Made by a program: the position numbers and the translations under genes. A stretch of 64,000 bases of DNA from a virus. Lineage: Duplodnaviria > Caudoviricetes. Each line of letters begins with the position of its first letter. Position 1 is the stretch's first letter. Shown in pieces: positions 2 through 40,998 of the stretch. The stretch covers positions 32,001 to 96,000 of the IMG/VR virus record IMGVR_UViG_3300013121_000013, one strand, 5' to 3'. The notes beneath the pieces were generated by a model. The model did no database searches. It worked only from the letters and a program-made list of their open reading frames with translations, and was not told the origin of the DNA.

Positions 2-2743
2 AAGAAGATACCAAATATTTTGACCGGCCATCAGTTTATGATGAAGCTTCACCATACTTCCGAGTGCTTTAGTGCTGACACTGAAGTCTTAACTTCTGAA
101 GGTTGGAAGAAGTGGCCAACTGTAACGAGCAAAGATAAACTAGCTACAGTAGAATTAGGAAGTAATAAGTTATTCTTTGAAGAGCCTCTGGAGTTAGTTA
201 AGTATCATTTCAATGGTGATCTATTACAAGTTTCCAACCAATGTATAGATTATGCCGTTACGCCGAACCATCGATTGCTGTGTAGTTTTGAGAAATCTTC
301 TGATCTAGAATTTAACACAGCTAAGAATGTTTATTCTAGAGACTTCTATATACCTCAATCTGGATTTATAAACTCTGAGAATATTGACGAAGGCGAAGTT
401 AATATAAACGGGTTAAGCTTTAAATGGGATGACCTTTCAGAGCTTATTGCCTGGTGGGCAGCTAGAGGCAGTGCTACATCTTTAAAAGGCAAAAACATAG
501 TAACCATATATCAAAATGAAAACCTTAAACCCGAAGGCTTTGCCTCAATTGATCAGCTACTGTCGAGACTAAAGCTTAACTATAAAGTTATAAATATATA
601 TGGCAGAAAACTTGGCTTTACTATAAAGGGTAAAGAGCTTTCTAAATATTTTGTAAAGCTTGGGTCTAAAATATGTAATAAAAAGCTGCCAAGAGAGTTT
701 GTTACACAAACTTCTTTAGAGACTCGTAGAAAGTTTTTAGGCATAATAGCCTTTAATAGCGTTGTGGAAAAAGAAGATGGAAGGAAGTTTTATTCTTTCT
801 CTACGAAGTCCAGACAGTTGGCAGACGATATTCAAGAAGTTGCTATCAGATCCGGCTTCTCAGCTGTCGTAAAAAATGTAGTTATGGATAAGATGTTGAC
901 CGGATTTAAAGTAGAGATCTTTACTAACAATAAGCGTGTGAAAGTAGACCAAAACAGCCATTCTTATCTACAGTATTCTGGAATGGTATACTGCGCCAAT
1001 ATGAGAAATGGCCTGCTGTACGTTAGAAGAAACGGGAAGCCAATGCTTTCTGGAAATTCTAAGTCTCAAGGTAGAGGTCTTGGCGGCTATACAGCAGAAG
1101 GAATTCCCGCAAAGGGCGGGGACGATGCTAGTAAAAGAATGGCTATGATGGATACTTACGCTTTGCTGTCTCATGGAGGTATAGATATCCTTAGAGATTC
1201 TAATTTAATCCGTGGGCAGAGAAATGATGAGTATTGGCAGGCGTTTATGACTGGTCATAGGCCGCCTGCTCCTAAAGTTCCATTTGTATATGAAAAGTTT
1301 GTTAATTCTTTAAAGGCTTCTGGTATTAATGTAGTGCGAAAAGGTTCACAGACTCAATTAATGGGATTAACTGATAAAGATATAGAACAGATGGCTGGAG
1401 ATAGATATATAACAAACGCCGAGACTGTTGACTGGAAAGAAGGATTAAAGCCCGTTAAGGGAGGTTTATTTGATCAAGCTTTAACAGGCGGGCACGACGG
1501 CACGCGATGGGCGCGAATTAAGTTACACGAACCTATGCCAAATCCTGTTTTTGAAGAGCCTATCAGGAAGATCTTGAATCTTACTCAGTCTCAATTTGAT
1601 GATGTTATTAAAGGTAAGAGAAGTATTCATGGTCACACCGGGGCGAGCGGTATAAAGAAGCTTTTAGAGAATATTAATCTGGATAGAGCAATAGAGACAG
1701 CTAGAGCTGAAATAGCTGGAGGAAAAAAGAGCGCCAGAGATATGGCTATCCGTAAACTGGGATATCTAAAAGCTGCACAAGCTACTGGTGTTCATCCAAA
1801 AGATTGGGTAGTTTCTTCAATTCCAGTTTTGCCTCCAGCTTTCAGGCCTGTGTCGGTCATGAAAGGAAGCGGAGGTCAGCTAGTAGCTGATCCTAATTAT
1901 CTCTATAAAGAAGTGTTTGACGCTAATGAAACTTTGTCACAGCTGGCGACCATGGTCGATGATGTTGGGGAAGAGCGACTAAATGTATATAAAGCGTTTA
2001 AAGCAGTGACTGGTCTAGGCGACCCAACTCAACCAAAAAATCAAGAGCGTCAAATTCGCGGTCTTCTCAGACACGTATTTGGCGATTCTCCTAAATTTGG
2101 AATGGTGCAACAAAAGTTATTAGCGTCTTCTGTAAACTTAGTCGGTAGATCAGCGATTACTCCTAATGCAGATTTGGACATGGATCAGGTAGGCCTTCCA
2201 GAACCAACTGCTTGGTCTGTGTATAAACCATTCATTATTCGTAGACTCGTTCGTAAAGGTTTAAAGCCTTTAGATGCGGCCAGATCTGTTGCTGATCAAA
2301 CAAAAGTGGCTAGGGAAGCTTTAATTCAAGAAATGGAAGATAGGCCAGTAATTGTTGACCGTGCGCCTGTACTTCATAAGTATGGTATTATGGCTTTTAA
2401 ACCCTTATTAACTAAGGGGCATACACTTCAAGTCAACCCGGTAGTAACTAAAGGCTTTGGTGCCGACTTTGACGGCGATCAAATGAATTATCACGTACCA
2501 GCTGACGACGACGCTGTTGAAGAGGCACTTCATAAGATGTTGCCATCTAAGAATCTCTTTGCCACTTCTAGCTTTAAAGCTCATTATCTGCCTAACCAGG
2601 AATATGTAGGCGGTCTTTATGCGGCATCAGTTAATAAGAATAAAAATAGGCCACGAAGGTTTGCTACCAAAGCGGACCTTTATAAAGCTATAAAATCTGG
2701 AAATGTTAATATTGACGATCCAGTCGAAGTCGTACAAACCTAA
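2..2743 (+). CDS. Phage multisubunit RNA polymerase: beta C-terminal region fused to beta' N-terminal half, with an intein; 5'-truncated by the window
   Basis: Frame is open from base 2. After intein removal FMMKLHHTSE|SKSQGRGLGGYT..KGG..SKRMAMMDTYALLSHG matches the RpoB C-terminus (YMLKLxH..DKMHARSTG..GGQRFGEMEVWAL). It continues into RpoC motifs: ETVD..KP.KGGLFD, IPVLPPAFRP, GRSAITP, DRAPVLHK and catalytic GADFDGDQM (2459-2479). Confidence 0.93.
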   Translation, partial: KKIPNILTGHQFMMKLHHTSECFSADTEVLTSEGWKKWPTVTSKDKLATVELGSNKLFFEEPLELVKYHFNGDLLQVSNQCIDYAVTPNHRLLCSFEKSSDLEFNTAKNVYSRDFYIPQSGFINSENIDEGEVNINGLSFKWDDLSELIAWWAARGSATSLKGKNIVTIYQNENLKPEGFASIDQLLSRLKLNYKVINIYGRKLGFTIKGKELSKYFVKLGSKICNKKLPREFVTQTSLETRRKFLGIIAFNSVVEKEDGRKFYSFSTKSRQLADDIQEVAIRSGFSAVVKNVVMDKMLTGFKVEIFTNNKRVKVDQNSHSYLQYSGMVYCANMRNGLLYVRRNGKPMLSGNSKSQGRGLGGYTAEGIPAKGGDDASKRMAMMDTYALLSHGGIDILRDSNLIRGQRNDEYWQAFMTGHRPPAPKVPFVYEKFVNSLKASGINVVRKGSQTQLMGLTDKDIEQMAGDRYITNAETVDWKEGLKPVKGGLFDQALTGGHDGTRWARIKLHEPMPNPVFEEPIRKILNLTQSQFDDVIKGKRSIHGHTGASGIKKLLENINLDRAIETARAEIAGGKKSARDMAIRKLGYLKAAQATGVHPKDWVVSSIPVLPPAFRPVSVMKGSGGQLVADPNYLYKEVFDANETLSQLATMVDDVGEERLNVYKAFKAVTGLGDPTQPKNQERQIRGLLRHVFGDSPKFGMVQQKLLASSVNLVGRSAITPNADLDMDQVGLPEPTAWSVYKPFIIRRLVRKGLKPLDAARSVADQTKVAREALIQEMEDRPVIVDRAPVLHKYGIMAFKPLLTKGHTLQVNPVVTKGFGADFDGDQMNYHVPADDDAVEEALHKMLPSKNLFATSSFKAHYLPNQEYVGGLYAASVNKNKNRPRRFATKADLYKAIKSGNVNIDDPVEVVQT
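65..1057 (+). mobile_element. Intein (331 aa) with a degenerate LAGLIDADG endonuclease, inside the RNAP beta region
   Basis: Block A CFSADTEVLT, block B VTPNHRL, block F/G YSGMVYC..NGLLYVRRNGKPMLSGN followed by +1 Ser. Removing it restores the RpoB motif. The LAGLIDADG-like helices are eroded (LIAWWAARGS; FLGIIAFNS). Confidence 0.92.
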
Positions 2744-2755
2744 AAAGGACTAATA

Positions 2756-3217
2756 ATGTTAAAAAGCGTTAAGAACTTTTGTGTATATATGTTTCTATCT
2801 GCTAGAATGTATTTAAAGAATAGGCAACTTCTTAAAAATATTAATTTTGAGATAGATAAAATTAATAAGAATAAGTTTAAATATTACGAAGACGTAACTA
2901 AGTCGGATTTATTATGCAGGCTAAATGAATTGCAAGTAGACTTGCATTCTTTTAAACTAAATTACGTTAAGAGATCGACTAGTGACGTTTTGGGTGGTTA
3001 TGATATTAACATAGAAGTGGGCGGTCGTAATTTATCTGATTGTGGCGTCCTGGTTCAGGGTGTGGACATCAGTATTAGTTCTAAAGATTTTATACCTAAG
3101 GTTACGCTTCATACAGTAACTTTACCTAACGATTTTGTCTCGTCTAAGGAGCCGACAAGAAATGAAAAACCTGAGCAGGTCGTTGATAAAAACAGCGTCC
3201 ATAAGGGCGAAGTCTGA
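2756..3217 (+). CDS. Hypothetical protein
   Basis: 153-aa ORF with an AAGGA RBS; no recognisable motif. Confidence 0.55.
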   Translation: MLKSVKNFCVYMFLSARMYLKNRQLLKNINFEIDKINKNKFKYYEDVTKSDLLCRLNELQVDLHSFKLNYVKRSTSDVLGGYDINIEVGGRNLSDCGVLVQGVDISISSKDFIPKVTLHTVTLPNDFVSSKEPTRNEKPEQVVDKNSVHKGEV

Positions 3218-4346
3218 TCATATAAATGGACTCATAAAGCAAGGTGCATCTTTGTATAAAAATGTACTGAGTCCTTTAAATGAAAAACTAGCCTATAGAG
3301 ATTTAAAAGATCCTCTTGGTCCTTACGAAGCGGATAGATCGGCGGCTGTTTCTGGTTTAGACAACCAGGTTGCAGTTGACGAATACATTCGTGAAAAGCA
3401 CCCAGTTCAATATTGGCTAAATCCTCTGGTAAACGGGCCAATATCTGAAATTATGCATAGACTTTCTAGACGTCATAATGCGTCAATGGGAAGAAGTATG
3501 GGTATGGAAGTTGGTAGGGGTGCAGCTGGGCTTATAGGCGGCATAAATGTTCCGTTAGCCCCTGGGTTAGGAGTACATGCCGGCACTGATATATTTGATA
3601 TAGGAGCGACCATTGCTGGCGGTGCGGGGTCTAAAACAAGGGCCAGAGATACCTTCAATACCAAGCTTAAACCAAGATTAGATATGACAAAAAAAAGAGA
3701 CGAGGAAGATGAAGCTGAAAAAACTTCATCTGATAAAGACTCAGATATCGGGGCTTATACTGCAACTCAGTTAGGGCAATTTAGAGAATCTGATGCGGCT
3801 GTAGCAGCAAATGAGTTTAACAGGAGTAATAGACCCTTCCATTATTGGTTAAACCCTTATGTACAAGGTCCACTCGGAGAGTTTAAGAATAGATATTTAA
3901 GAAGACTTGCAGCTGCAAGGGGCACATCCACTCCAGCTGCTGTAGCTTCGAGTATTCCGTTGTTGAACTTAATCGGGGCTCCTGCAGCAGCTTTATTGTC
4001 TGGAGGACTTAAAAATAAAAATAAGATGCGAAGAATGAGTTCTCCAGATATAGAAGATAGAAAGAAAAAAGAAGTAGAAAAAGATGTCGATGTTATGACC
4101 TATGGCAGTAACCAAAATTATGCCAGACAAAGAACTAAAGAATCTATGCACGTTCCTAGATACCTAGCTTTCAGCTATAGACTAGGGAAGTCAGCTGCGG
4201 AGGTAGGCATGCCGCAAGTTTCTCCTAGCGGCTCTACTTCTTCAAAGTTACCAATTTCGAAAGTAGGTAGGCCTAGAGGGTTAATGTCCATAAAAGCTCC
4301 TCTAGCTGGAGGTTCACAAGCTGGAAATAATTTTTTTTTTAACTGA
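3162..4346 (+). CDS. Putative internal head/ejected protein (K-x-A motifs, duplicated YWLNPxVxGP unit)
   Basis: ATG 3162 follows AAGGAG. Contains IKTAS, EKLAY and GKSAA, two copies of a ..P..YWLNP.V.GP.GE unit, and Gly-rich hydrophobic segments. Confidence 0.55.
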   Translation: MKNLSRSLIKTASIRAKSDHINGLIKQGASLYKNVLSPLNEKLAYRDLKDPLGPYEADRSAAVSGLDNQVAVDEYIREKHPVQYWLNPLVNGPISEIMHRLSRRHNASMGRSMGMEVGRGAAGLIGGINVPLAPGLGVHAGTDIFDIGATIAGGAGSKTRARDTFNTKLKPRLDMTKKRDEEDEAEKTSSDKDSDIGAYTATQLGQFRESDAAVAANEFNRSNRPFHYWLNPYVQGPLGEFKNRYLRRLAAARGTSTPAAVASSIPLLNLIGAPAAALLSGGLKNKNKMRRMSSPDIEDRKKKEVEKDVDVMTYGSNQNYARQRTKESMHVPRYLAFSYRLGKSAAEVGMPQVSPSGSTSSKLPISKVGRPRGLMSIKAPLAGGSQAGNNFFFN

Positions 4347-4383
4347 CAACGATCCGTCTGTCAGTGTAAAGAAGGCTGGCATC

Positions 4384-4773
4384 TTGTATAAAAAGATGGA
4401 TCCAACAGAGCCTATATTAACAAGGCTTAAAAAAAGAAACGATAAGACCGGAGAAACCGAAATAGGTAATTTTTGGGCTGGCGTAGAGCAGTATCAAAAA
4501 CCTAGATTTTTAACTAGACTATTTACTGACGACGAGAACAAGCAATACAACACGGCCACTAACCATTCATTTGCTGTGGACCTGGATGAATATAAAAATA
4601 GACCAGAGTCTTTAAAGAAAGAGGTCGATGCAAGATCTGCACTGTGGTTGGCAGCACTAGTTGAAAACTATCCTAAGCAGTATAGATTTGAAGGTGAAGA
4701 TCTATATACAGTGCCAGAAGAAGTTGCTTTAAAAGGTCCAAAAAGTAACACCAACTTAGAGTATAAAGTTTGA
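4384..4773 (+). CDS. Hypothetical protein, possibly the frameshifted C-terminus of the upstream gene
   Basis: Weak RBS. Its frame is open back through the T10 run at 4331-4340. Confidence 0.5.
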   Translation: MYKKMDPTEPILTRLKKRNDKTGETEIGNFWAGVEQYQKPRFLTRLFTDDENKQYNTATNHSFAVDLDEYKNRPESLKKEVDARSALWLAALVENYPKQYRFEGEDLYTVPEEVALKGPKSNTNLEYKV

Positions 4774-4787
4774 TAGACGTCTAGCAA
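4770..4787. promoter_or_regulatory. 18-bp palindrome, copy 1 (TTGATAGACGTCTAGCAA, 1 mismatch)
   Basis: Overlaps the TGA stop and lies just before the next RBS; matches four other copies. Confidence 0.7.
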
Positions 4788-4801
4788 AAAGGAAATGTTT
4801 T

Positions 4802-5542
4802 ATGCCAATGTATAACCCCGAGTTAATGAGACTTGCGCAGAAAAAGGCTTCTGCTCGAAAGAAGCAAGCATTTGTACCAGGCGATCCGGCTGCAGCAGCA
4901 GGTGGAGGAGGTGGAATGCCTATGGATCCTGCAATGATGGGTGGCGCTCCTCCTATGGATCCTGCAATGATGGGTGGCGCTCCTCCTATGGATCCTGCAA
5001 TGATGGGTGGCGGGGGAATGCCGCCAGCTGCACCACCACCTCCTCCTCCAGCACCTCCTGCACCTCAGCCAGCTACAGCTGAATCAGGAGGAAAACCTCC
5101 TAAGCCTGATATCAATACAGTTGCTAACGACATTTGGCAAGTTAAAAAGATGGTTGAAGGCATCTATCATAGAAATGAATGGCCATTACCTCAAGGCTTG
5201 ATAGACGGCCCTAATAGAGACCCAGCGACAGGCGCTGCTGTGCCGCCTGGAACACCTGGATCTACAAGCGACATGTCGGCACCTACTCAGAATCCTGCAG
5301 GCGGGGGCGGCGGCGCTATACCAGCCATAGAGCCGATGGAAGCCGCCAGTTTTGGAGGAGGCGGAGAAAAGAGTGGAAGCTTTAAGCGGACAGAAGTTGT
5401 AGGTGAGCCTTATGCAGATTCGTCTAGAACTGGCCGACATAGAAACAATATAACTACAATGTCTAAAGCAGCTGCCGTGGCCAGATTGGTTCAGGGTCTG
5501 GCTATGAAACGGGAGAAAGAACGTGCGTCTAGAAGCTCATAA
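4802..5542 (+). CDS. Pro/Gly/Met-rich putative internal head protein
   Basis: N-terminal KKASARKKQAF, PMDPAMMGGAP repeats and poly-Pro. Confidence 0.6.
   Translation: MPMYNPELMRLAQKKASARKKQAFVPGDPAAAAGGGGGMPMDPAMMGGAPPMDPAMMGGAPPMDPAMMGGGGMPPAAPPPPPPAPPAPQPATAESGGKPPKPDINTVANDIWQVKKMVEGIYHRNEWPLPQGLIDGPNRDPATGAAVPPGTPGSTSDMSAPTQNPAGGGGGAIPAIEPMEAASFGGGGEKSGSFKRTEVVGEPYADSSRTGRHRNNITTMSKAAAVARLVQGLAMKREKERASRSS
4919..5012 (+). repeat. 33-bp tandem repeat, ~2.8 copies (PMDPAMMGGAP)
   Basis: CCTATGGATCCTGCAATGATGGGTGGCGCTCCT starts at 4919, 4952 and 4985 (partial). Confidence 0.95.
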
Positions 5543-5786
5543 TGCTTTTGGAGATGTCATCAACTCAGAAGTGACTAGGGTTGTTGTATATGATGACTAT
5601 GACAACCCTATTTCTGTAACATTTAAATACAACGACGGCAATATCTTTACAGCTAATGTCACCGACCCTGATTTTCAAAGAATTCTTTCTTTTTTAGGTA
5701 TTAAAAAAATTGTAAAGGTATCAACTTTAAAGTCTACGAGTATAAAAGATGCTATCGACAACAGCAGGACAATTCTTAATCAATGA
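5523..5786 (+). CDS. Small hypothetical protein overlapping both neighbours
   Basis: 87-aa ORF with a GTG start after GGGAG. Confidence 0.55.
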   Translation: MRLEAHNAFGDVINSEVTRVVVYDDYDNPISVTFKYNDGNIFTANVTDPDFQRILSFLGIKKIVKVSTLKSTSIKDAIDNSRTILNQ

Positions 5787-7638
5787 ATCGCTTCCACCAG
5801 ATCTCAGAGACTACAATAGAGTTCTGGATATGAAAGGCATTAAAAAATTATTTCAAGATATAGCTGAAAAGCATCCTGATAACTATAAGGATATAACAAA
5901 GAAGTTATTTGATATAGCCAGAACTAGTGCTTACGAGACTGGAGGCTATTCTTTTGCTTTAGAGCATTTAACTAAAGCTAAGTCGGCTAAGGCAATAACT
6001 GAGAAGATAAGACAAAAAGTTAATGCTATAAATATGGACAATACGTTGTCCAAAGACGAAAAAGAAAAGAAAATTCTAGAGACTGTCTTAGGCGAAGATG
6101 AAAATTTAACTAATGCTGTCTATAAAGAAAGTCTAGAAGAAAACAATCCTATAGCATTGCAAGTTAAATCTGGTGCTAGGGGTAAGCCTATGAACTTGAG
6201 AAGTCTACGTGGAGCAGACTTAACGTATGTTGATCACAGAGATAGACCGATTCCTATACCTATTTTAAGGAGCTATAGCGAAGGTTTGTCTCCAGCTGAA
6301 TACTTCGCTGCAGCTTTCGGAGCTAGAAAGGGCATTATCGATGTTAAGTTTGCAACTCAAGATGCTGGGTATTTTTCAAAACAGCTAAATCAAGCTACAC
6401 ATAGACTAATGGTGTCTGCTACAGATTCAGAAACTGAACCCACTAACATTAGGGGACTTCCAGTAGATACAAATGATTCGGATAACGAAGGAGCACTATT
6501 GGCTTACCCTGTTGGCGGGTATCCAAGAAATACAGTACTAACTCCTAAAATATTAAATGATCTACAAAATAAGGGCATAGACAAGCTCTTAGTAAGGAGC
6601 CCTCTAGTAGGCGGACCTGAAGATGGTGGAGTGTATGCTAGAGATGTAGGGGTCAGAGAAAGAGGAACTCTCGCGCCTATCGGAGATATGGTAGGAATTA
6701 CAGCCTCGCAGGCATTAAGCGAGCCTCTAAGTCAAAGCCAACTTTCATCAAAGCACAGTGGAGGCGTTGCCGGAGCAGCTAAGGGTGTCAGCGGATTCAA
6801 GCTGATGGATCAATTAGTTCAGGTTCCAAAAACATTTCCAGGCGGTGCTACTCACGCACAGATTGACGGTAGGGTAGAACAGATAGTCGAAGCTCCTGCT
6901 GGAGGTCATTATGTAACTATATCAGGAGAGCGACATTACGTCCCTTCTGGTCTAGATCTTAAGGTTAAAAAAGGTGATCCGATAGAAGCTGGCGATGTCC
7001 TGTCTGCCGGTATTCCCAATCCTTCAGAAATTGTAAAACATAAAGGAATTGGTGAAGGTAGACGTTATTATGCAAATTTATTCAAGTCCTCTTTAACGGA
7101 ATCAGGAATACCAGCAAATAGAAGGAATGTTGAACTTCTAGCTAGGGGCTTGATAAACCATGTCAGAATCACAGAAGAAATGGGCGAATACGTACCAGGT
7201 GATGTATTGCCATATAACGTCTTAGAGAGTCGCTATCAGCCACGTGAAGGGCATAAGGTAATGGACCCAAAACAAGCTGTTGGCCACTACCTTGAAGAGC
7301 CTGTACTTCACTACAGTATAGGCACAAAGATTAGACCAACGATGATACCTGATTTACAGAGATACGGTGTAAGTAATGTCAAGGTGCATCCCGATCCAGC
7401 GTATTTTGAACCTGAAATGGTCAGAGGAATGCAGAACGTGACACAAGACCCAGATTGGATGACGAAGATGCTTGGTTCTAACCAGCAACGAAGTCTGTTA
7501 TCAAGTGTCCATAGAGGTAATAGAAGTGACGAACAAAGCACTAGCTTTGTCCCAGCTTTAGCCAAGGCCGAGGGCTTTGGTATAACAAGTAAAGTAAAAG
7601 ATTGGCATAAGACGCCAAAGGAGTTGTTCAGTGACTAG
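5749..7638 (+). CDS. RNA polymerase beta' subunit, C-terminal half (funnel, bridge helix, trigger loop, clamp)
   Basis: TTAGQFLIN (~TTxGR), NPI..QVKSGARG, bridge helix SEGLSPAEYFAAAFGARKGIIDVKFATQDAGYFSKQL, trigger loop GDMVGITASQALSEPLSQSQLSSKHSGG, and RRNVELLARGL. Confidence 0.92.
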   Translation: MLSTTAGQFLINESLPPDLRDYNRVLDMKGIKKLFQDIAEKHPDNYKDITKKLFDIARTSAYETGGYSFALEHLTKAKSAKAITEKIRQKVNAINMDNTLSKDEKEKKILETVLGEDENLTNAVYKESLEENNPIALQVKSGARGKPMNLRSLRGADLTYVDHRDRPIPIPILRSYSEGLSPAEYFAAAFGARKGIIDVKFATQDAGYFSKQLNQATHRLMVSATDSETEPTNIRGLPVDTNDSDNEGALLAYPVGGYPRNTVLTPKILNDLQNKGIDKLLVRSPLVGGPEDGGVYARDVGVRERGTLAPIGDMVGITASQALSEPLSQSQLSSKHSGGVAGAAKGVSGFKLMDQLVQVPKTFPGGATHAQIDGRVEQIVEAPAGGHYVTISGERHYVPSGLDLKVKKGDPIEAGDVLSAGIPNPSEIVKHKGIGEGRRYYANLFKSSLTESGIPANRRNVELLARGLINHVRITEEMGEYVPGDVLPYNVLESRYQPREGHKVMDPKQAVGHYLEEPVLHYSIGTKIRPTMIPDLQRYGVSNVKVHPDPAYFEPEMVRGMQNVTQDPDWMTKMLGSNQQRSLLSSVHRGNRSDEQSTSFVPALAKAEGFGITSKVKDWHKTPKELFSD

Positions 7639-8265: not shown

Positions 8266-10647
8266 GTGCCTATTACATCAAATCAAAAAAGAGCGAACAT
8301 GGGCGGCGGACAAGATACGCCGTTTGAACAAGCATTTGCTAATCTAGCGCATACGCATTTGAAAGATAAAGCACCTTCGTTGCTAGATTACGAGGTCGGC
8401 TTTCAACTTGTGGATAGAAACGAAGACAACACAAAAGCTGTAGGTATTTTTGGATTTAAAGTTGGTAATCAGTGGCTGTATGCTCCTGTGTTCTTTTTAA
8501 ATGGTGAGCTTAAAGGCCACGAACTTCTCTACATTAAAAATCAAGATAGCTTCGTTCCTTTGAAGGAAAATTGGCTTAGTTATTTATTAAATAGGAAGCC
8601 GAGTGTCTTAGGAGAAGAGACAGATAAAAATCTATCTCACATTGGAATTATTCCTCCTCACCTATACCAGCTGTCTAGATCGCCGCATAAATTCGCTTCG
8701 GCCATACCTAGAATGTCTGATTGGGCACAGCAAGTGATGCCGGATATTGCAACATTTGCAACAGAGAATCCTCTTACTTCTGAAAAGTATAAAGACATTA
8801 GAACTGCTACTCAGTTTATAAAAGATGCTGGGGCCAATGTAGCCATTACCTTTATCAGAGCTATACAGGAGAATCCGCAGCTTGAGAAAGTGTGCTATGA
8901 TGTGTATGGCAAGGACGAGGTAATTGCTGCTGTAAAGGAAGCTAGAGATTCTTTAAAGAAATCAGCTTCAGTTTTAAATGTTAAAAAAGCTGCTGTTCAA
9001 CCTAGGACTATTAGACAAGTCTTAAATGTTGACCCTCTTTATAAGATGGCTCAAGTACAGAAAAAGATACGAATATTAAAACTGTCGGAAGATAAAAAAG
9101 CTCCTGATGGTCTAGACCAGGGCTTGTCTGGGCTAGACGACAAAGAAAAAGAACAGATTGTGAGATCTGGAGTCGTCATAAAAGATACTAGAGGGCCAGA
9201 AGAAACTACTCTTGCGTATAGAACAGAAGGCCCTGAAAAACTTACGAATCCGTTTGCGAGTGGTATATACGATGTTCTAACTTCTCCAGGGAAGTTCGAA
9301 CGTTGCTATATAGTATTTGGCCCATATAGTTCTAGAAGAAGAAATAGTTTCTGCACGTTGTTCAGACTTGAGGGTTCCAAGTCTGTACTTAATACACATC
9401 CGTCTAACATATGGGTATCCAATAAAGTTGAAGATAAAGAGTTCGATTCTTGGTGGGACAGCTTAGAAGATGTTAAGAGTTTGTCCAAATCTTCGGCTGA
9501 ATATGTTCTTATAACTAAAACTGGAGAAGGTACAGTACCTTTTCGAGTTGAATCTGAGGTAGCAGATGAAAATGGCTACAAGACATATAATGTATGCTTT
9601 GATGACTATGCTAGAAAGTGTAGAGCAGGATATCTGCCCAAAATAGGCCCTGACTCTGATAGAAGATTTGGATTTGAAGGCTCTGGATACGACGATGAAT
9701 ATAGTTCTGACTATCCTAGAATAACTTTAACCGAAAGGCATGGTGGAAGAATTCGTCTAATGAAGGGCGAGCTATTTGTTCCAAATGGAACTAAGATTGT
9801 TAAAGTAACTGATGAAGAGTCGGATAAATCTGAAAAGGATGAGCCTTTAACATTGTCTAGCCTTATTGATATCCAAATGAAGATAATCAATAAGTCGCCT
9901 AAGCTAATGATACAGAAGATGGGAAGTGGCTTTATTCTTAACGGAAAGCCTCAAAAAGATAAGATAGATTCAATCATATATCTTATTAGACAGCACGGGT
10001 TAGGAGAAAAGCAAGCTTCGCTTCTTCTTGATGAAGCTTATGAAAATGGAAAAGCTTCTTATGTCTTAAAATATGCTGCGCCATGGGATTTGTTAAATCA
10101 AGGACCAACAGCTCCAAGCGACCCAGGTCCGTTTATGGGATATGATCCTATGACCAGCGGAGGAGTTCCAACTCAATTCTCGTCTGAGTATATGCAAAAT
10201 ATACCAGAAATGTCTGCTGCAAACACGGATAGGTCTATCTACGCACCAATGGGACCTGAACCTAAATATCAAGGTCCATCTAAGCCAGATCAATCAACGC
10301 TTCAAGCGGCTATGCAAGCTAGCCAGACAGGGCAAAAGGAAGTCTTTGATACAGCTATGCTTGGCTCGCTTTTAAAAGCTACTAAAGATGAAAATCTTGT
10401 AGATAGGTATTTAGGCGATCTGATGAAGGGCATAGACCGTCTTGGACGAATACTCTTCATGTTCTACTGGCACCAGGAAGAGTTTGAGGGCAGATATGGA
10501 AAAGACGATCTTGTTGAATTAGAAGACGGGCTAAGAAATGCGTTTGAGTCACTTGGAGATATTACCTTGTTCTTGAAGCAGAAGACTATAGATCCAGGCC
10601 AAGACAACGCTTACGGACCAGATATAGAAGATATTTCTTCAATATAA
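8266..10647 (+). CDS. Large putative internal head protein with many K-x-A motifs
   Basis: 793 aa; QKRAN, HKFAS, KKSAS, VKKAA, YKMAQ, EKQAS, LKYAA; lies upstream of the head module. Confidence 0.55.
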   Translation: MPITSNQKRANMGGGQDTPFEQAFANLAHTHLKDKAPSLLDYEVGFQLVDRNEDNTKAVGIFGFKVGNQWLYAPVFFLNGELKGHELLYIKNQDSFVPLKENWLSYLLNRKPSVLGEETDKNLSHIGIIPPHLYQLSRSPHKFASAIPRMSDWAQQVMPDIATFATENPLTSEKYKDIRTATQFIKDAGANVAITFIRAIQENPQLEKVCYDVYGKDEVIAAVKEARDSLKKSASVLNVKKAAVQPRTIRQVLNVDPLYKMAQVQKKIRILKLSEDKKAPDGLDQGLSGLDDKEKEQIVRSGVVIKDTRGPEETTLAYRTEGPEKLTNPFASGIYDVLTSPGKFERCYIVFGPYSSRRRNSFCTLFRLEGSKSVLNTHPSNIWVSNKVEDKEFDSWWDSLEDVKSLSKSSAEYVLITKTGEGTVPFRVESEVADENGYKTYNVCFDDYARKCRAGYLPKIGPDSDRRFGFEGSGYDDEYSSDYPRITLTERHGGRIRLMKGELFVPNGTKIVKVTDEESDKSEKDEPLTLSSLIDIQMKIINKSPKLMIQKMGSGFILNGKPQKDKIDSIIYLIRQHGLGEKQASLLLDEAYENGKASYVLKYAAPWDLLNQGPTAPSDPGPFMGYDPMTSGGVPTQFSSEYMQNIPEMSAANTDRSIYAPMGPEPKYQGPSKPDQSTLQAAMQASQTGQKEVFDTAMLGSLLKATKDENLVDRYLGDLMKGIDRLGRILFMFYWHQEEFEGRYGKDDLVELEDGLRNAFESLGDITLFLKQKTIDPGQDNAYGPDIEDISSI

Positions 10648-13671: not shown

Positions 13672-15021
13672 ATGAATATTCCACAACCAAAAACGGTTAA
13701 AGAAGCTGCGGCTATTCTAGCTACTGTTAAAGCTAATTCTTTGGCCTTTAAAAAATCTGCTGAAGACCCATGGTATAGTTTTCCTGGCGCTCTTAGACGA
13801 ATTGATACAGCCTCAAACGCTGCTGCAGACGTTATCGGCGCTGCTGCTACTGGAGCTTTGGACAAAGCCAGAGATGGCATTAATTACTTTAAAGGCCATT
13901 TTTCTGACCCTTCAAATGCGCTAGGAATTTCTCCTCTAGGCCAGACTGTTGCAGGAGGTCTAGCTGGTGGTGCGGTTGGAGGCTTAACCGGTCTTACGAC
14001 AGGCCTGTCGCGTAAAAATAAACGACCACTTAGAGATATGCTTACTGGAATTGGTTTAGGTGGTCTTACAGGCGCAGGTCTTGGAGCTGCATATGGCTAT
14101 GGCCATAAAGCTTTATACGATACAGGAGAAGGAGCATCTAGAGCTGGCTTGGACGCTGGAGCTAAAGCCATTGAAGAAGCTAAGGCACATAATGCAACGT
14201 ATGCTATAGCTAGGCCTATAGCTTCTTTAGCCAGGGCTCCTGGTGACACATTATCAAGAGCCGGGACTAAAGTCTTGGATCCAAATATGGCTGACGAAAC
14301 CTGGGCTGGAGCAGCAGGCGGTGGTACGTATTTGGGGGTTAAGGGGTATAAAGGCCTAAGAAATTTGGTGGCTAAATATAAGGGGCTAGACGACAATCGT
14401 GGATGGAGAGCCCTTGCCTCAACTATGAGCGAGCCAACAGCTAAAGGGATGCCAGCAAGTCCTGGAGCTGGAATTGGCAAGCCGAAATCAATACCCTATC
14501 AATTGGCTCAAAGATTATCTACTGGAAAAGAAATTTTTGCTGATGAGATGAATAACATGTTAAATACTTTAGGTCGAAAAGGTGGCGGACTATCTAACAA
14601 GCAAATGATCGAATTGAGGAAGGTGTTAGCCGGAGTAGGCGTTAACGCGCCGACAAGAGCCAAGATTTTAAATGTTATAAAGAATCATGGTCTAGGAAAT
14701 TTAAATGCCAATGAATTACAGCGGCAAATGAACACTGCTGTCAAGACTAGATACGGTGCTAAGCCTACAGTCAGGGGCTTTGGAGCATCAGTTCTAGCGC
14801 CGATGGCTATAACAAGAGGAATAAAGACTCTAACGGATTCTGCTGCACTGAGAGATGAGTTAGAGGCGTTTGTTAAAGCCCAACCGTCTAGCATACAAGG
14901 AAACGGACCTATGCTAGCTAAAGCTTATAAAAAAATGATAGAAGAACAGGCCAACGCGTCCGGCGGTAATCCTCAAGTTTCTCCTGCGATAATAGATAGA
15001 CTTATGAATTGGGGTAAATAA
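13672..15021 (+). CDS. Glycine-zipper putative ejection/internal protein
   Basis: GGLAGGAVGGLTG and GLGGLTGAGLGAAYG segments; VKEAA and KKSAE motifs. Confidence 0.55.
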   Translation: MNIPQPKTVKEAAAILATVKANSLAFKKSAEDPWYSFPGALRRIDTASNAAADVIGAAATGALDKARDGINYFKGHFSDPSNALGISPLGQTVAGGLAGGAVGGLTGLTTGLSRKNKRPLRDMLTGIGLGGLTGAGLGAAYGYGHKALYDTGEGASRAGLDAGAKAIEEAKAHNATYAIARPIASLARAPGDTLSRAGTKVLDPNMADETWAGAAGGGTYLGVKGYKGLRNLVAKYKGLDDNRGWRALASTMSEPTAKGMPASPGAGIGKPKSIPYQLAQRLSTGKEIFADEMNNMLNTLGRKGGGLSNKQMIELRKVLAGVGVNAPTRAKILNVIKNHGLGNLNANELQRQMNTAVKTRYGAKPTVRGFGASVLAPMAITRGIKTLTDSAALRDELEAFVKAQPSSIQGNGPMLAKAYKKMIEEQANASGGNPQVSPAIIDRLMNWGK

Positions 15022-19335: not shown

Positions 19336-20265
19336 ATGCCACAGACTCGTGATGAAACCAGACTGCTAAACGACACATTGTTTGAGCAGTTAAGCACTCC
19401 TGGCATGGAGAAGACCGCGATTGATGCCGTCAACGACTTCACCCGCATCAGAATGCGTGAAGACGGATTCTATCGCAGAATTCTCCCGCCATTGCAAATT
19501 ACTAATGACGAGCTAGATCGTCAAGTAGACACAGATAAGCCAGTGAAGGTTGTAGACAAGGAGCCAGACAGCCCGGCTGCTGTAAGTATTCCTTTCGCCA
19601 CACTGCCGACCAACTTCTACATTCGCGGACCTCGCTATCGAGTAATGTTTGACAGACTAGTAACTCCAAGATTTACTAAGGACGTAGACGAGCTTCGCAC
19701 CTGGGTAATGGACATCAGACAGGTAATGTCTGACAATGCGATTAAGGACATGTTGGCTGAAGAAGACAACAAGTTCATTGCCGCTGTAAACGCTTCTCTC
19801 ATCTCTCAAGGCGCTGTAGCCCCTACTTCTGGCGAAGTCCAGTGGACACAGATCTTTGGAGGTATTACTCGAGATACATTCCAGGACAGCTTGAAGGTTA
19901 TGCCTTCTACGCCGTTCCACTTAGAGGCGCACACTGGCCTTATCAATAACGTAACCATTAGAGAGTTCCTCAAGTGGGGCCGTGACGAAGTCGGCGGCGA
20001 TATGTCGCAGGACCTTCTAAGAAATGGCTGGTCCGAAACCGAATTTGCAAACGTTCGTTGGATCATCACTATCAAGAGAGATCTTGTACCTGATGACACA
20101 ATCTTCTACTTTGCAGATCCTAAGTTCATCGGCAAGAGCTATATGCTTGAAGATACAACTATGTATATCAAGAGAGAAGCATACTTACTAGAGTTCTTTG
20201 CTTATGAAACTCTTGGCGGATCTATCGGCCATACTGGCGGTCTTGTCAGAGTAGACTTCGCGTAA
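19336..20265 (+). CDS. Major capsid protein (HK97 fold)
   Basis: 309 aa; strong GGAGG RBS and C-ending codon bias. The RRILPP..V.DKEP..IPF..P.F.KDV.EL..ED.KF pattern resembles HK97/encapsulin-like capsids. Canonical synteny; MEKTA after a short leader. Confidence 0.8.
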   Translation: MPQTRDETRLLNDTLFEQLSTPGMEKTAIDAVNDFTRIRMREDGFYRRILPPLQITNDELDRQVDTDKPVKVVDKEPDSPAAVSIPFATLPTNFYIRGPRYRVMFDRLVTPRFTKDVDELRTWVMDIRQVMSDNAIKDMLAEEDNKFIAAVNASLISQGAVAPTSGEVQWTQIFGGITRDTFQDSLKVMPSTPFHLEAHTGLINNVTIREFLKWGRDEVGGDMSQDLLRNGWSETEFANVRWIITIKRDLVPDDTIFYFADPKFIGKSYMLEDTTMYIKREAYLLEFFAYETLGGSIGHTGGLVRVDFA

Positions 20266-25787: not shown

Positions 25788-28589
25788 ATGCCACAAGTTT
25801 TAACAGCTGGGTCAGTAATTGACAGCGGACGTAGAATCAAGACCTCATTCGGCGCCCCTCTTCGTCCACTTATTTTTGGATCGAAAGCTGGGTTACATAG
25901 ATATTCGGTCGCAGGAGAAAAGACAGAGATCTCTCTTGGTGATTACGACGTAAACCAAAATACTGTTTATAGCTATCCGGATAAGGCTTCTGGCTCTATT
26001 GTAGATCTGGACTATGTGAAGCTTTACATGGACGATGCGTATTTACAGTACTTAGCTAAATATATAGGTGTAGGTAGCGGGACTGTTGCTCCAGTAGCTA
26101 ATTACAATAATAGAGTTAGGGCATCAGATTTAGTATTTAAAGAATACACAAATGCTGCAGGTACGACTTTTTCTAGATCTTCTGACTTCTATGACAGAGA
26201 CGTAGCTGTAGGAGACATAGTAAGAGTTAGAGGAACAGTAGGAAGCCAATCTACTACGTTCACTACCAGCGTTAATGGATTTATAAACGAATCAATCCCA
26301 TCTGTTATAGGCGCAGCCTCCGCAGACTCTGACAATGCCGCAAGCCAAAGCTCTAGTACTTCTATCAGTCAAGTAGCTGATACTCCAGTCAATGAAGTTG
26401 TAGCTACCGCCGATGGTAGCGCTTATGATGGCCTTGCTGACGGGGATATTAGTGAAACCTACACTATCACTGTCATACAATCATCAACCAATAGTGATGC
26501 CACTACAGCAAGACTTCAAGTTACCAGCGCCAGCGGTAATGATGATCAGGCTTCTGTAACTCCAGCCGCTTTTGGGGATCCTACAGATATCGGAACTAGA
26601 GGCCTAACTGTCACATTTGCACTAAGCGGTCCAGGAACGTCTGAATCTATAGATCAAAACGATCTTGTGGTGGGGCAATCTTGGACGGTAACTGTAGAGC
26701 AAAGCTTCACTCCTCCGACAGCTACCTCTGGAGGAACAGCAGCGACAGGTCTACCCACAACAACCTATATAATCACTGTTACAAGAGGCGGGTCGTTCGT
26801 AGATCCAACTCCTCCTCAAATCACGGTCTCTACAACAACTGGCGTTGATGTGAGCGGACCAACTAACGCTACTGTATCAACAGCTTTGGCGGTAGGTACA
26901 TATGGAGTCACTGTCACTTTTACAGGGTCTGCACTGCGTAAGGGGGATATTTATCACATCTCCACAACTCGTACACAGCTTGGTGCTTATAAAACAATTA
27001 TCTTGAAGGATAGTCTTCCCTCAGGCTTAGTTGGAGCTACAGATCTTGATATTTGGTTATTCATTGAGAAAAATGGATTACTCATTACTGAAAATAGGCT
27101 GCCCAGTCCTCCAGATAAGAACTGGGTTGCAGCAGCGTCAACTTTTACAGTGAATTCAGATATAGAAGTTTACGAGGATAGTTGGACAGACGACGGCACG
27201 CCTCTAAGTCTGCCTGTCGTTGAAGGCACTATGTATCTTGAATACAGAGAGTGGCTGACGTCTGGTGGAAATACTATATACAACATATATGACGTTTCTG
27301 AAGTAGAAGCTACGTTCGGAACGGTTGATCCAGATAATCCAATTGCCTATGCCGTGGACAAGGCTCTTAGAAATACTGGATATAACAACCTTACCGGAGT
27401 ATCCGTAGATGATATAGACATCGTTAGGGCAGTATGGCTAGCTGATGACCCATCAGAAACTCAAAGCTGGCAGGATGTTCTAGATCTAGTTGAAGGTGTA
27501 GAGAGCATTTATAATCTCATACCTCTCACTACAGATACCGATGTTCTAAATATCGTAGCGTCTCACGTTTCGACTGAATCGGCGGCAGAAGTGGCCAGCT
27601 TTAGAGCCGCAATATTCCAGCTTACAGCGCCCAGCGTACAGACTATAAGATCTACAAACGACGACTCGTCGGTTATCTTGGCTACACTCGTCCAAAATCC
27701 TGAAGTTACATCTACCTCTTATAGTCAGTTTGTGGTTGAGGGACAAACACCGAAATTTATTACAAGCGGTGTAGTGGCGGGTGACGTTGTGAGATATCTA
27801 TATACCACAGACGGGTTCGGAAGCGAAACATACACGGAGTTCACAATCGCTTCTGTAGTCTCTGAAGATACACTTCTAGTAGAGACGGGGCATACATCTG
27901 CAGTGAACGTGGCGCAAAAGATAGTAATCGTAAGATATCCTAGTAAGGCAGAAATTATCACTGATCTTATAACTCAGGCAGAGTCTTATGGTTCTGATAG
28001 AGTTCTTGCTATTTGGCCTGATACTATTAACGACGCTGGACAAGAAGTCGCAGGATATTATCTTGCAGCAGCTCTCGGAGGATTAATGGGCTCTGTTGCC
28101 CCACATCAGCCTTTGACAAATGTTGAAGTCCTTGGTTTCGATGCTGTTTCTAGATCTAAAGATTTCTTCACCAATAAGCAACTTCAGCAACTCGCAGATG
28201 GTGGCGTATTTGTTGTTACAGAGGCACCAGATGGTACTGTCTATATTCGAAAAGCTTGGACAACCGATCCTTCGTCTATAGGCTCTAGAGAGGAAATGGC
28301 TAGACGCAATAGTGATGCAGCCAGATTTGCAATACTTAGTAAGTGGCACGACTACATCGGTAATGCAAACAATGTCCCATCAACTTATGCTGCGATGAAT
28401 GGTGACTTTACCGGCGTTATCGGAGAAATGAGAAGTGACACCTTCTTACCTAGATTAGGGTCTATGGTACTGGCGGGCAGTCTTGACGAATTGCGATCTC
28501 ATGCTGTACTTGCTGATAGGGCAGTTGCAAACATAACTTTACAGGTGCCTTATCCTCTTAATGTTATAGAGCTAAACGTTGTTATATAA
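25788..28589 (+). CDS. Contractile tail sheath protein with inserted Thr-rich domains
   Basis: C-terminal core YYLAAALGG..PHQPLTN..GF..QLQQLADGGV..RE..RNSD..VPYPLN.I; 933 aa. Confidence 0.85.
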   Translation: MPQVLTAGSVIDSGRRIKTSFGAPLRPLIFGSKAGLHRYSVAGEKTEISLGDYDVNQNTVYSYPDKASGSIVDLDYVKLYMDDAYLQYLAKYIGVGSGTVAPVANYNNRVRASDLVFKEYTNAAGTTFSRSSDFYDRDVAVGDIVRVRGTVGSQSTTFTTSVNGFINESIPSVIGAASADSDNAASQSSSTSISQVADTPVNEVVATADGSAYDGLADGDISETYTITVIQSSTNSDATTARLQVTSASGNDDQASVTPAAFGDPTDIGTRGLTVTFALSGPGTSESIDQNDLVVGQSWTVTVEQSFTPPTATSGGTAATGLPTTTYIITVTRGGSFVDPTPPQITVSTTTGVDVSGPTNATVSTALAVGTYGVTVTFTGSALRKGDIYHISTTRTQLGAYKTIILKDSLPSGLVGATDLDIWLFIEKNGLLITENRLPSPPDKNWVAAASTFTVNSDIEVYEDSWTDDGTPLSLPVVEGTMYLEYREWLTSGGNTIYNIYDVSEVEATFGTVDPDNPIAYAVDKALRNTGYNNLTGVSVDDIDIVRAVWLADDPSETQSWQDVLDLVEGVESIYNLIPLTTDTDVLNIVASHVSTESAAEVASFRAAIFQLTAPSVQTIRSTNDDSSVILATLVQNPEVTSTSYSQFVVEGQTPKFITSGVVAGDVVRYLYTTDGFGSETYTEFTIASVVSEDTLLVETGHTSAVNVAQKIVIVRYPSKAEIITDLITQAESYGSDRVLAIWPDTINDAGQEVAGYYLAAALGGLMGSVAPHQPLTNVEVLGFDAVSRSKDFFTNKQLQQLADGGVFVVTEAPDGTVYIRKAWTTDPSSIGSREEMARRNSDAARFAILSKWHDYIGNANNVPSTYAAMNGDFTGVIGEMRSDTFLPRLGSMVLAGSLDELRSHAVLADRAVANITLQVPYPLNVIELNVVI

Positions 28590-40188: not shown

Positions 40189-40998
40189 ATGCCGTATATG
40201 GACCCTTCTCAGTTTAAGCCAAAAAAACTGAAAAGTAACTTACAAGAAGAGGCCAGCCCTCTTGATGATTTATTGCTGGAGCCCTCTTATAGAAAACAAT
40301 ATGAAGCATGGAAAAATACTCCAAGCCCAGCTACGTCTGGCGCACTTTTAAGATCTGTAGATCCAGTTATTAAATCGGCTTTAACAACATATGGAGGGAC
40401 TTCTTCCAAAAGTCCTACTTTATACAGTAAAGCTAGATTAATGGCTTTACAATCTCTACCTTCATACGATCCAAAAAGAGCAAAATTACAGACATTCTTA
40501 ATGTCACAGCTACAAGGCCTGAGAAGGGCAGCTAGTAAAGAAGAGAGAGTACTGTCAGTCCCAGAACAGGTCCTTTTAGATAGACAGCACATATTTGATA
40601 CGTCGAAGTTTTTAGAAGAAGAACTAGGTAGAGAACCATCTACTATGGAGTTGGCGGATAGATTAAAACTTTCTCCAAAAAGAATCGAGTATATACAGAA
40701 ATACAGACCAGCTATGGCTGAAGGATCGTTTGTAGCACAAACTGAGGAGGGTGGCGCAGAGCCTTGGGCTCCTGCTGTCGAGTCTGATGGCTCTGCTTCT
40801 TGGCGTGAGTTCGTATATCATAGTTTAGATAATACTGATAAGCTTATAATGGAGTACACACTAGGAATGCACGGTAGAAGTCCATTAAGCAATCAAGAGC
40901 TAGCAAAGAAATTAAGGGTATCGCCTGGGGCGATAAGCCAAAGAAAAGCTAAAATACAGGATAAAATAGATTCTAGATATGATGTTGGAGTTATGTAA
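40189..40998 (+). CDS. Phage sigma-70 family factor (regions 2, 3 and 4; FliA/SigB-like size)
   Basis: Region 2 SYDPKRAKLQTFL..L.R; region 3 LEEELGREPSTMELADRLKLS; region 4 HTH LSNQELAKKLRVSPGAISQRKAKI. Confidence 0.88.
   Translation: MPYMDPSQFKPKKLKSNLQEEASPLDDLLLEPSYRKQYEAWKNTPSPATSGALLRSVDPVIKSALTTYGGTSSKSPTLYSKARLMALQSLPSYDPKRAKLQTFLMSQLQGLRRAASKEERVLSVPEQVLLDRQHIFDTSKFLEEELGREPSTMELADRLKLSPKRIEYIQKYRPAMAEGSFVAQTEEGGAEPWAPAVESDGSASWREFVYHSLDNTDKLIMEYTLGMHGRSPLSNQELAKKLRVSPGAISQRKAKIQDKIDSRYDVGVM

Follow-up and report, generated by a model that had tools for sequence, protein, structure and literature searches.

Gene Organization of the RNA Polymerase Locus

The analysis concerns the genes for a multisubunit RNA polymerase (RNAP) in a 64,000-nt stretch of phage DNA (Duplodnaviria; Caudoviricetes), hereafter the window, which comprises bases 32,001-96,000 of the linear 155,646-bp IMG/VR virus record IMGVR_UViG_3300013121_000013. 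The + strand carries nearly all open reading frames (ORFs), and the G+C content is ~40%. Two genes on this strand encode the large RNAP subunits: the first joins beta to the N-terminal half of beta' (beta::beta'N) and the second encodes the remainder of beta' (beta'C). They are the only RNAP gene set in the genome. The fusion gene is already open at window position 1. In the parent record it forms a single ORF of 7,530 nt (L005:214-7743; 2,509 amino acids, aa) that starts 4,787 nt upstream of the window, and its 3' 2,742 nt (aa 1597-2509) occupy positions 2..2743 (+). A Pfam search of the full-length ORF identified Rpb2_2, Rpb2_3, Rpb2_6 (136 bits) and LAGLIDADG followed by Rpb1_1 and Rpb1_2, all in one frame. 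A preliminary description of the window, made from the letters and a list of ORFs, had claimed a beta/beta'N fusion gene ending at 2743, and both the order of the Rpb2 and Rpb1 domains and the stop codon at 2743 agree with this.

Within the window the fusion gene consists of a beta extein segment that ends in MMKLHHTSE, the conserved KLxH motif of beta (2..64), an intein of 331 aa (intein 3, 65..1057), the C-terminal beta extein, which by alignment extends to the equivalent of approximately Salmonella beta residue 1337-1342 (1058..1348), and the N-terminal half of beta' with the clamp helices and the catalytic double-psi beta-barrel, assigned by alignment to PDB and Salmonella sequences (1349..2743). 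The whole of beta' is not in one polypeptide with beta: the chain stops at 2743 and the remainder is encoded 3 kb further on by a cysteine-free 629-aa gene (5749..7638, +) that matches Rpb1_4 and Rpb1_5 (Pfam) and contains the TTAGQ motif, the bridge helix, a trigger loop without SI3 and the C-terminal region. Its protein begins with MLSTTAGQFL and five ORFs separate it from the fusion gene, as had been claimed.

The Fusion Junction, the Split Point, and the Active Site

Alignment to Salmonella RpoB and RpoC places the end of beta (...SGINVVRKGS) at about nt 1346, inside the interval of ~1330-1360 proposed earlier. Beta is joined there to beta' without a linker, and beta' is without its first ~18-30 residues. 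The part downstream of the intein aligns with residues ~160-513 of bacterial beta' at ~30% identity (best PDB match, a cyanobacterial gamma subunit). The earlier view of a readily alignable, bacterial-like enzyme split just before TTxGR is right. The active-site motif GADFDGD is encoded at nt 2459-2479 (Rpb1_2, 88 bits), and its DFDGD core, through which the fusion had been said to pass, at nt 2465-2479. The beta catalytic domain PF00562 (136 bits) lies upstream of the window and its GDK...GxKG motif is restored by the removal of intein 1. In beta'C, the bridge helix GARKG and the trigger-loop ...KHSGG align to PDB beta' chains (Rpb1_5, 78 bits), the trigger-loop His is kept, and the alignment runs from TTxGR nearly to the C-terminus of Gram-positive-type beta' chains, with SI3 absent. 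Because the catalytic residues are intact, an active polymerase would be the expected product.

The fusion chain ends ~90 residues past GADFDGD, and the chain break takes the place of the Salmonella beta' loop ~553-570, through which a single-chain relative (L056) reads without interruption. Residue 34 of cyanobacterial RpoC2 aligns to residue 51 of beta'C and the cyanobacterial split therefore lies ~17 residues further on, at the other side of the TTxG motif, so that the comparison drawn earlier with the split beta' of cyanobacteria holds.

The enzyme is pared down relative to its bacterial counterparts. Measured against Salmonella, beta of the family is missing residues 221-302, 388-419, 938-1049 (SI2), and 1149-1187, and beta' is missing the SI3 region together with residues 12-29 and 68-99, the latter being the zinc-binding domain. 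Both the beta flap and the clamp helices have been retained. SI1, SI2, SI3, and the N-terminal zinc domain are all lost in the enzyme of the window phage. The beta' zinc sites are absent: nothing corresponds to Salmonella residues 68-99, and cysteine is missing from the mature enzyme (0 out of 2,115 residues in the spliced fusion and beta'C, compared with a mean of 1.4% in the ORFs of the genome; chance probability ~1e-13).

Three Inteins in the Beta Subunit

The beta part of the fusion gene carries three insertions of 359, 333, and 331 aa that are absent from the intein-free homologues in Salmonella phage Arash and Vibrio phage D69. Inteins 1 and 2 are encoded upstream of the window (L005:2632-3708 and L005:3829-4827) and intein 3, the one implied by the preliminary description, at window positions 65-1057. 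One insertion interrupts the GDKM/GxKG motif and the other two follow NPLGVVSR and KLHHTSE; removal of the inteins restores GDKM-S..GGKG, NPLGVVSR-T, and KLHHTSE-S. Each intein has Cys as its first residue, Gly-Asn as its last residues and Ser or Thr at the +1 position, and the exteins therefore remain cysteine-free; the penultimate His is absent in all three. The inteins are probably of the LAGLIDADG type and mutually 24-27% identical. The best LAGLIDADG_3 stretch in Pfam was found in intein 1, where a second stretch was not located. Intein 3 has no Pfam match of its own, aligns with inteins 1 and 2 across its full length (24-25% identity) and matches intein-bearing phage genes; its ends (C...GN followed by S) fit a class 1 intein with Cys1, a C-terminal Asn, and a +1 nucleophile. 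After splicing the fusion protein would measure 1,486 aa, within the range of ~1.45-1.53 thousand amino acids (kaa) of the intein-free Arash/D69-type fusions. An intron or a split intein that bridges the two polymerase genes was considered and rejected, as the chain ends (...VEVVQT and MLSTTAGQ) are without intein motifs.

Distribution of the Fused and Split Polymerase

The layout was identified in cultured phages. Salmonella phage Arash (OQ632216) encodes gp206 (1,525 aa) and gp216 (606 aa), Vibrio phage D69 has genes of 1,527 aa (0261) and 609 aa (0264), and Vibrio phages D148 and D181 share the layout of these two. The beta'C proteins of Arash, D69, and the window phage start at the same T-x-G motif in the alignment. 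The Arash/D69-type RNAPs also resemble that of the window phage in the beta::beta'N fusion within one ORF, the deleted zinc domain, the gp10-type sigma gene, and the gp218-type neighbor. They differ from it in sequence (26-30% identity), in the absence of inteins, and in the retention of 4-6 cysteines, including a CxxC in beta'C.

A scan of IMG/VR identified 54 loci, 40 of which have both a fusion-gene match and a separate beta'C gene in reach. The C-terminal tail of beta and beta'N are encoded in one ORF in 38 of these 40 loci, 36 of which also include the N-terminal part of beta, and beta'C lies 0.6-6.7 kb downstream of the fusion gene. Beta' is unsplit in three loci (L056, L053, and L060), with L056 being a single beta::beta' ORF of 2,082 aa. 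A search of metagenome proteins gave 1,697 matches at E <= 1e-20, and PF00562 and PF00623 occur together in one protein of ~1.44-3.6 kaa in each of the 120 matches listed. A second search showed the single-chain form (~2.05-2.16 kaa) to be equally common, on contigs of 150-190 kb. The fused-and-split layout is common to hundreds of uncultured phages.

Several features of individual relatives were recorded. Many members of the single-chain clade (L056:4169-10417, P0124-P0242; ~2,050-2,160 aa) are marine, and some single-chain beta::beta' proteins are binned in NCBI as proteins of bacterial metagenome-assembled genomes (Alteromonadaceae). The beta'C frame extends 630-760 aa further in four close relatives (L008:10001-14125, L010:10001-13720, L011, and L012); the extension in L008 contains LigD_N phosphoesterase and ATP-dependent ligase domains, and the extended beta'C of L008 and its kin may be a fusion protein. 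In the single-chain relative L053 (L053:5242-11596) beta shifts frame at about nt 7165 (656 aa + 1,473 aa), a probable sequencing frameshift or else a different split inside beta.

The preliminary description had suggested an undescribed lineage of phage RNAPs. The lineage is distinct, as proposed, and differs from the phiKZ/AR9 and crAss types and in gene layout from the unfused mReC type, but it is large, its sequences are public, and Arash is published. The window therefore adds a further member, rich in inteins and free of cysteine, to a little-described group whose public sequences are annotated as beta and beta', and does not amount to the discovery of that group. As for the architecture itself, the layout is present in Arash and the Vibrio phages, and no description of the fusion or the split of this RNAP was found in the searched literature. 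The Arash paper names gp206 and gp216 beta and beta', with the words fusion and split absent (PMC10585845), the mReC paper mentions fusion for crAss phage only (PMC7481178), and reviews of jumbo-phage RNAPs do not cover the fused-and-split type.

Phylogeny and Origin of the Split

A phylogenetic analysis, a kind of check proposed in the preliminary description, was based on concatenated beta and beta' sequences (IQ-TREE, LG+G4, 36 rows, 1,973 columns). All 31 split forms, the window phage among them, form one clade (support 100/99), and L053, L056, Carin-5, and then the bacteria are placed outside. When 15 further single-chain proteins were added, the fused lineage was again recovered as a clade (100), within which the split clade (99), a single-chain clade of 16 rows (100), and L053 form a trifurcation, and all 48 lineage members have kept the fusion. 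The window phage, whose nearest relative is 54-55% identical, belongs to a 10-row subclade and Arash/D69 to a different one. Carin-5, the sole mReC-like representative in the trees, is placed outside the fused lineage on a long branch. With beta' undivided in the outgroups, the most parsimonious reading is that the split was derived once, from an ancestor of the single-chain type.

Intervening ORFs, Sigma, and Other Neighboring Genes

The five ORFs between the fusion gene and beta'C, all on the + strand, are g1 (2756..3217; 153 aa, three cysteines), g2 (3135..4346; 403 aa, no homologue in related loci), g3 (4384..4773; 129 aa), g4 (4802..5542; 246 aa, with homologues in the same gap of five close relatives), and g5 (5523..5786; 87 aa), which overlaps the start of beta'C by 38 nt. 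Searches of Pfam and PHROGs with these five ORFs and the flanking genes returned no families, and look-ups of g2 and g4 in the ESM Atlas yielded nothing usable. The four ORFs g2-g5 (865 aa in total) are without cysteine, as are beta'C and the sigma-like protein described below, and the large ORFs at 13672-15021, 19336-20265, 25788-28589, and 33732-36371 are likewise cysteine-free. Together these proteins may constitute a virion-associated or ejected set.

The g5 family (~70-90 aa; VYDD.G ... DPDF...L...GI) is found directly upstream of beta'C throughout the subclade, often overlapping its start (window 5523-5786, L009:9733-10008, L022:8279-8521, L015:9703-9930, and others), and a different small basic protein occupies its place in the D69 subclade. 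The small proteins upstream of beta'C could be accessory subunits. The prediction of a complex of g5 and beta'C gave a score of 0.00, which counts neither for nor against binding.

The RNAP genes are located within the morphogenesis region and are co-oriented with the morphogenesis genes. Downstream of beta'C lies a conserved 793-aa gene (8266..10647, +) without a family match that is homologous to Arash gp218 and follows beta'C in 43 related loci. In Arash, the SNF2 helicase gp217 (L004:20511-21929) abuts beta'C, and tblastn found no homologue of it in the record of the window phage; the Arash gp217 arrangement is reminiscent of phiKZ-type phages, in which a helicase is linked to beta'C genes. 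The Arash portal gp204, the helicases gp197 and gp198, and the second sigma gp196 likewise had no tblastn match in the genome. A MoxR-type AAA+ ATPase gene and a DUF2201 metallopeptidase/VWA gene are found ~3-6.6 kb upstream of the fusion gene (L002:8629-12446).

A gene further into the window (40189..40998, +) encodes a 269-aa protein of the sigma-70 family. It matches Sigma70_r3 above the cut-off (31.4 bits) and phrog_351, has weak but consistent PDB matches to regions 2-4 of SigA and HrdB, and was identified by tblastn as a homologue of Arash gp10. A search of the genome for Sigma70_r2 gave no match, and the protein is recognized through region 3 and Arash gp10. Of 20 related phage records, among them those with single-chain polymerases, 19 contain a homologue, and the gene is likely to encode the initiation factor of the phage polymerase.

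The preliminary description had suggested that the sequence upstream of the window be inspected for the rest of beta and for an alpha subunit. The complete beta with its three inteins is present in the parent record, and no alpha is detectable: searches for PF01000 and PF01193 gave no match in the record of the window phage or in five complete relatives, with control genomes positive.

Proposed Function and Alternative Explanations

The description of the enzyme is given with high confidence: a fused and split architecture with intact motifs, without zinc sites, SI1-3, and cysteine, encoded by one gene set without a detectable alpha, accompanied by a sigma gene, and belonging to an Arash/D69-type clade whose split most simply arose once. 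In the mechanism proposed here the two genes would specify the catalytic core of a multisubunit RNAP of bacterial type, the only one that the phage possesses. Chain 1 would be made as a 2,509-aa precursor from which the three inteins splice out, leaving a pared-down beta joined head-to-tail to beta' up to the catalytic barrel, and chain 2 would supply the bridge helix, the trigger loop, and the remaining beta'. The chains are predicted to reassemble non-covalently into a normal active center, like cyanobacterial gamma and beta', with the phage sigma presumably directing the core. The covalent beta-beta' link may stand in for the alpha dimer as an assembly aid, and the enzyme may be packed in the virion, injected, and used to transcribe the early genes independently of the host.

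A virion-carried, sigma-dependent polymerase is modestly favored because the genes lie in the morphogenesis region and the enzyme is without cysteine and zinc sites. In purified Arash virions no protein has a higher spectrum count than gp206, which exceeds even the capsid protein and has 100% mass-spectrometry coverage, and gp216, the sigma factor gp10, the SNF2 helicase gp217, and gp218 are also abundant (PMC10585845); the window phage has homologues of gp10 and gp218. The best-surviving alternative is that the same two-chain enzyme is made after infection by the host RNAP and serves middle or late transcription only, like the non-virion RNAPs of phiKZ-type phages. The Arash authors, who suggest a role in early transcription, themselves also allow for carry-over of abundant enzymes, and metabolic enzymes (ribonucleotide reductases and ligases) were likewise detected in Arash virions (PMC10585845); within the window a direct sign of packaging is absent. 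Set against this are the single RNAP gene set, the position of the genes, which share the orientation of the surrounding morphogenesis genes and adjoin the gene for a virion protein homologue, the spectrum count of the Arash fusion protein, and the absence of cysteine from the mature enzyme and sigma. An exclusively post-infection role is considered less likely than not.

The carry-over and the metabolic enzymes in Arash virions count against the proposed mechanism, as do five further points. Virion packaging is argued by analogy with a relative that is 26-30% identical, from a single proteomic study. The cysteine-free state suggests packaging and is not proof of it, as the Arash branch retains its 4-6 cysteines. 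The absence of alpha means no detectable Pfam match, and the phage could use host alpha or omega. The estimated completeness of the parent record is only 76%. Finally, the order of events, in which the fusion would have come first and the split later, depends on parsimony and LG+G4 trees with long outgroup branches and an assumed root.

The use of host subunits leads to a second alternative, in which the phage chains combine with the host alpha dimer and omega into a hybrid enzyme and the fusion has no role in assembly. In favor of a hybrid, the phage enzyme retains the C-terminal part of beta' along with most of beta, both alignable to bacterial enzymes, and no phage substitute for alpha was identified. 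However, a virion-carried enzyme must work before it meets host proteins, the fusion is retained in 48 out of 48 lineage members in the tree, and the RNAPs of phiKZ-type phages function without alpha according to a review. A hybrid enzyme is considered unlikely.

A recent disruption of beta' by mobile DNA, after which trans-splicing of RNA or protein makes the subunit whole again or the gene is left broken, is very improbable. Homing-endonuclease insertions sometimes split phage genes and the fusion gene is rich in inteins, but the break point is identical across 31 diverged genomes that form one clade, the gap of 0.6-6.7 kb is variable in content and includes opposite-strand genes in Arash, and in Arash the two chains, gp206 and gp216, were each observed as a protein of its own. 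An assembly or frameshift artefact, named in the preliminary description as a possible refutation, can be dismissed almost entirely even though the contig is a single metagenome assembly and the relative L053 has a probable frameshift inside beta, because the layout recurs in complete isolate genomes of two cultured phage groups and in dozens of independent assemblies and is not chance or artefact.

A more far-reaching version of the virion-carried polymerase can be put forward tentatively. A self-sufficient RNAP without alpha, zinc, and cysteine would be carried in the capsid together with its own sigma and injected, with the beta-beta' link replacing alpha and g2-g5 co-injected as accessory subunits, so that phage transcription would proceed from the first minute without the host RNAP.

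Comparison with Known Polymerases

Close to the RNAP of the window phage, besides the Arash/D69-type enzymes, are those of the single-chain beta::beta' phages such as L056, which form the sister group in the tree, share the junction, the deletion of the zinc domain, and the sigma companion, and differ in an unsplit beta' whose chain continues through the split loop. The rpoB-rpoC fusions of Helicobacter and Wolbachia likewise join the C-terminus of beta covalently to the N-terminus of beta', but these cellular enzymes are of full length, have alpha, omega, and zinc sites, and keep beta' unsplit. In cyanobacteria and plastids (RpoC1 gamma and RpoC2; PDB 8h3v, 8gzg) beta' is also cut shortly after the catalytic barrel and the parts reassemble; there the break falls after TTxGR rather than before TTAGQ, beta is separate, and RpoC2 has a large insertion.

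Among phage enzymes, the phiKZ/AR9-type RNAPs are encoded without alpha, have beta' split after the catalytic barrel, and include a virion form. They differ in that beta is also split, a sigma-70 homologue is absent, two paralogous sets are present, and the sequences can hardly be aligned to those of bacteria, whereas the window phage has an intact and fused beta, a sigma-like gene, one gene set, and ~30% identity to bacterial beta'. The mReC phages (Weinheimer and Aylward 2020, PMC7481178), Carin-5, and the Kleczkowskaviridae are Caudoviricetes with bacterial-type beta and beta' and often a sigma gene; in mReC, Cobetia Carin-5, and the Rhizobium Kleczkowskaviridae, however, beta and beta' are separate, unsplit genes of ~0.9-1.4 kaa. 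Locus L027 stems from the metagenome of a published mReC contig, but the gene sizes of the two differ and L027 is not that contig. Ralstonia RP13 has two short beta' pieces.

The multisubunit RNAPs known from phages have been either diverged enzymes that are hard to recognize (phiKZ, AR9, and crAss) or ordinary two-gene copies (mReC). The value of the window itself is mainly that of a well-resolved, intein-rich member of the lineage. The lineage offers a minimal, well-aligning enzyme in two natural topologies (one chain or two), without alpha, zinc sites, and cysteine and with sigma kept, and is a tractable system in which to study how assembly and initiation depend on alpha, the zinc domains, and chain connectivity. 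Cultured members (Arash and Vibrio D69) exist and these questions are therefore open to direct test. Should the enzyme prove to be injected, it would count as a virion RNAP dependent on sigma and represent a mode of host takeover that is so far uncharacterized.

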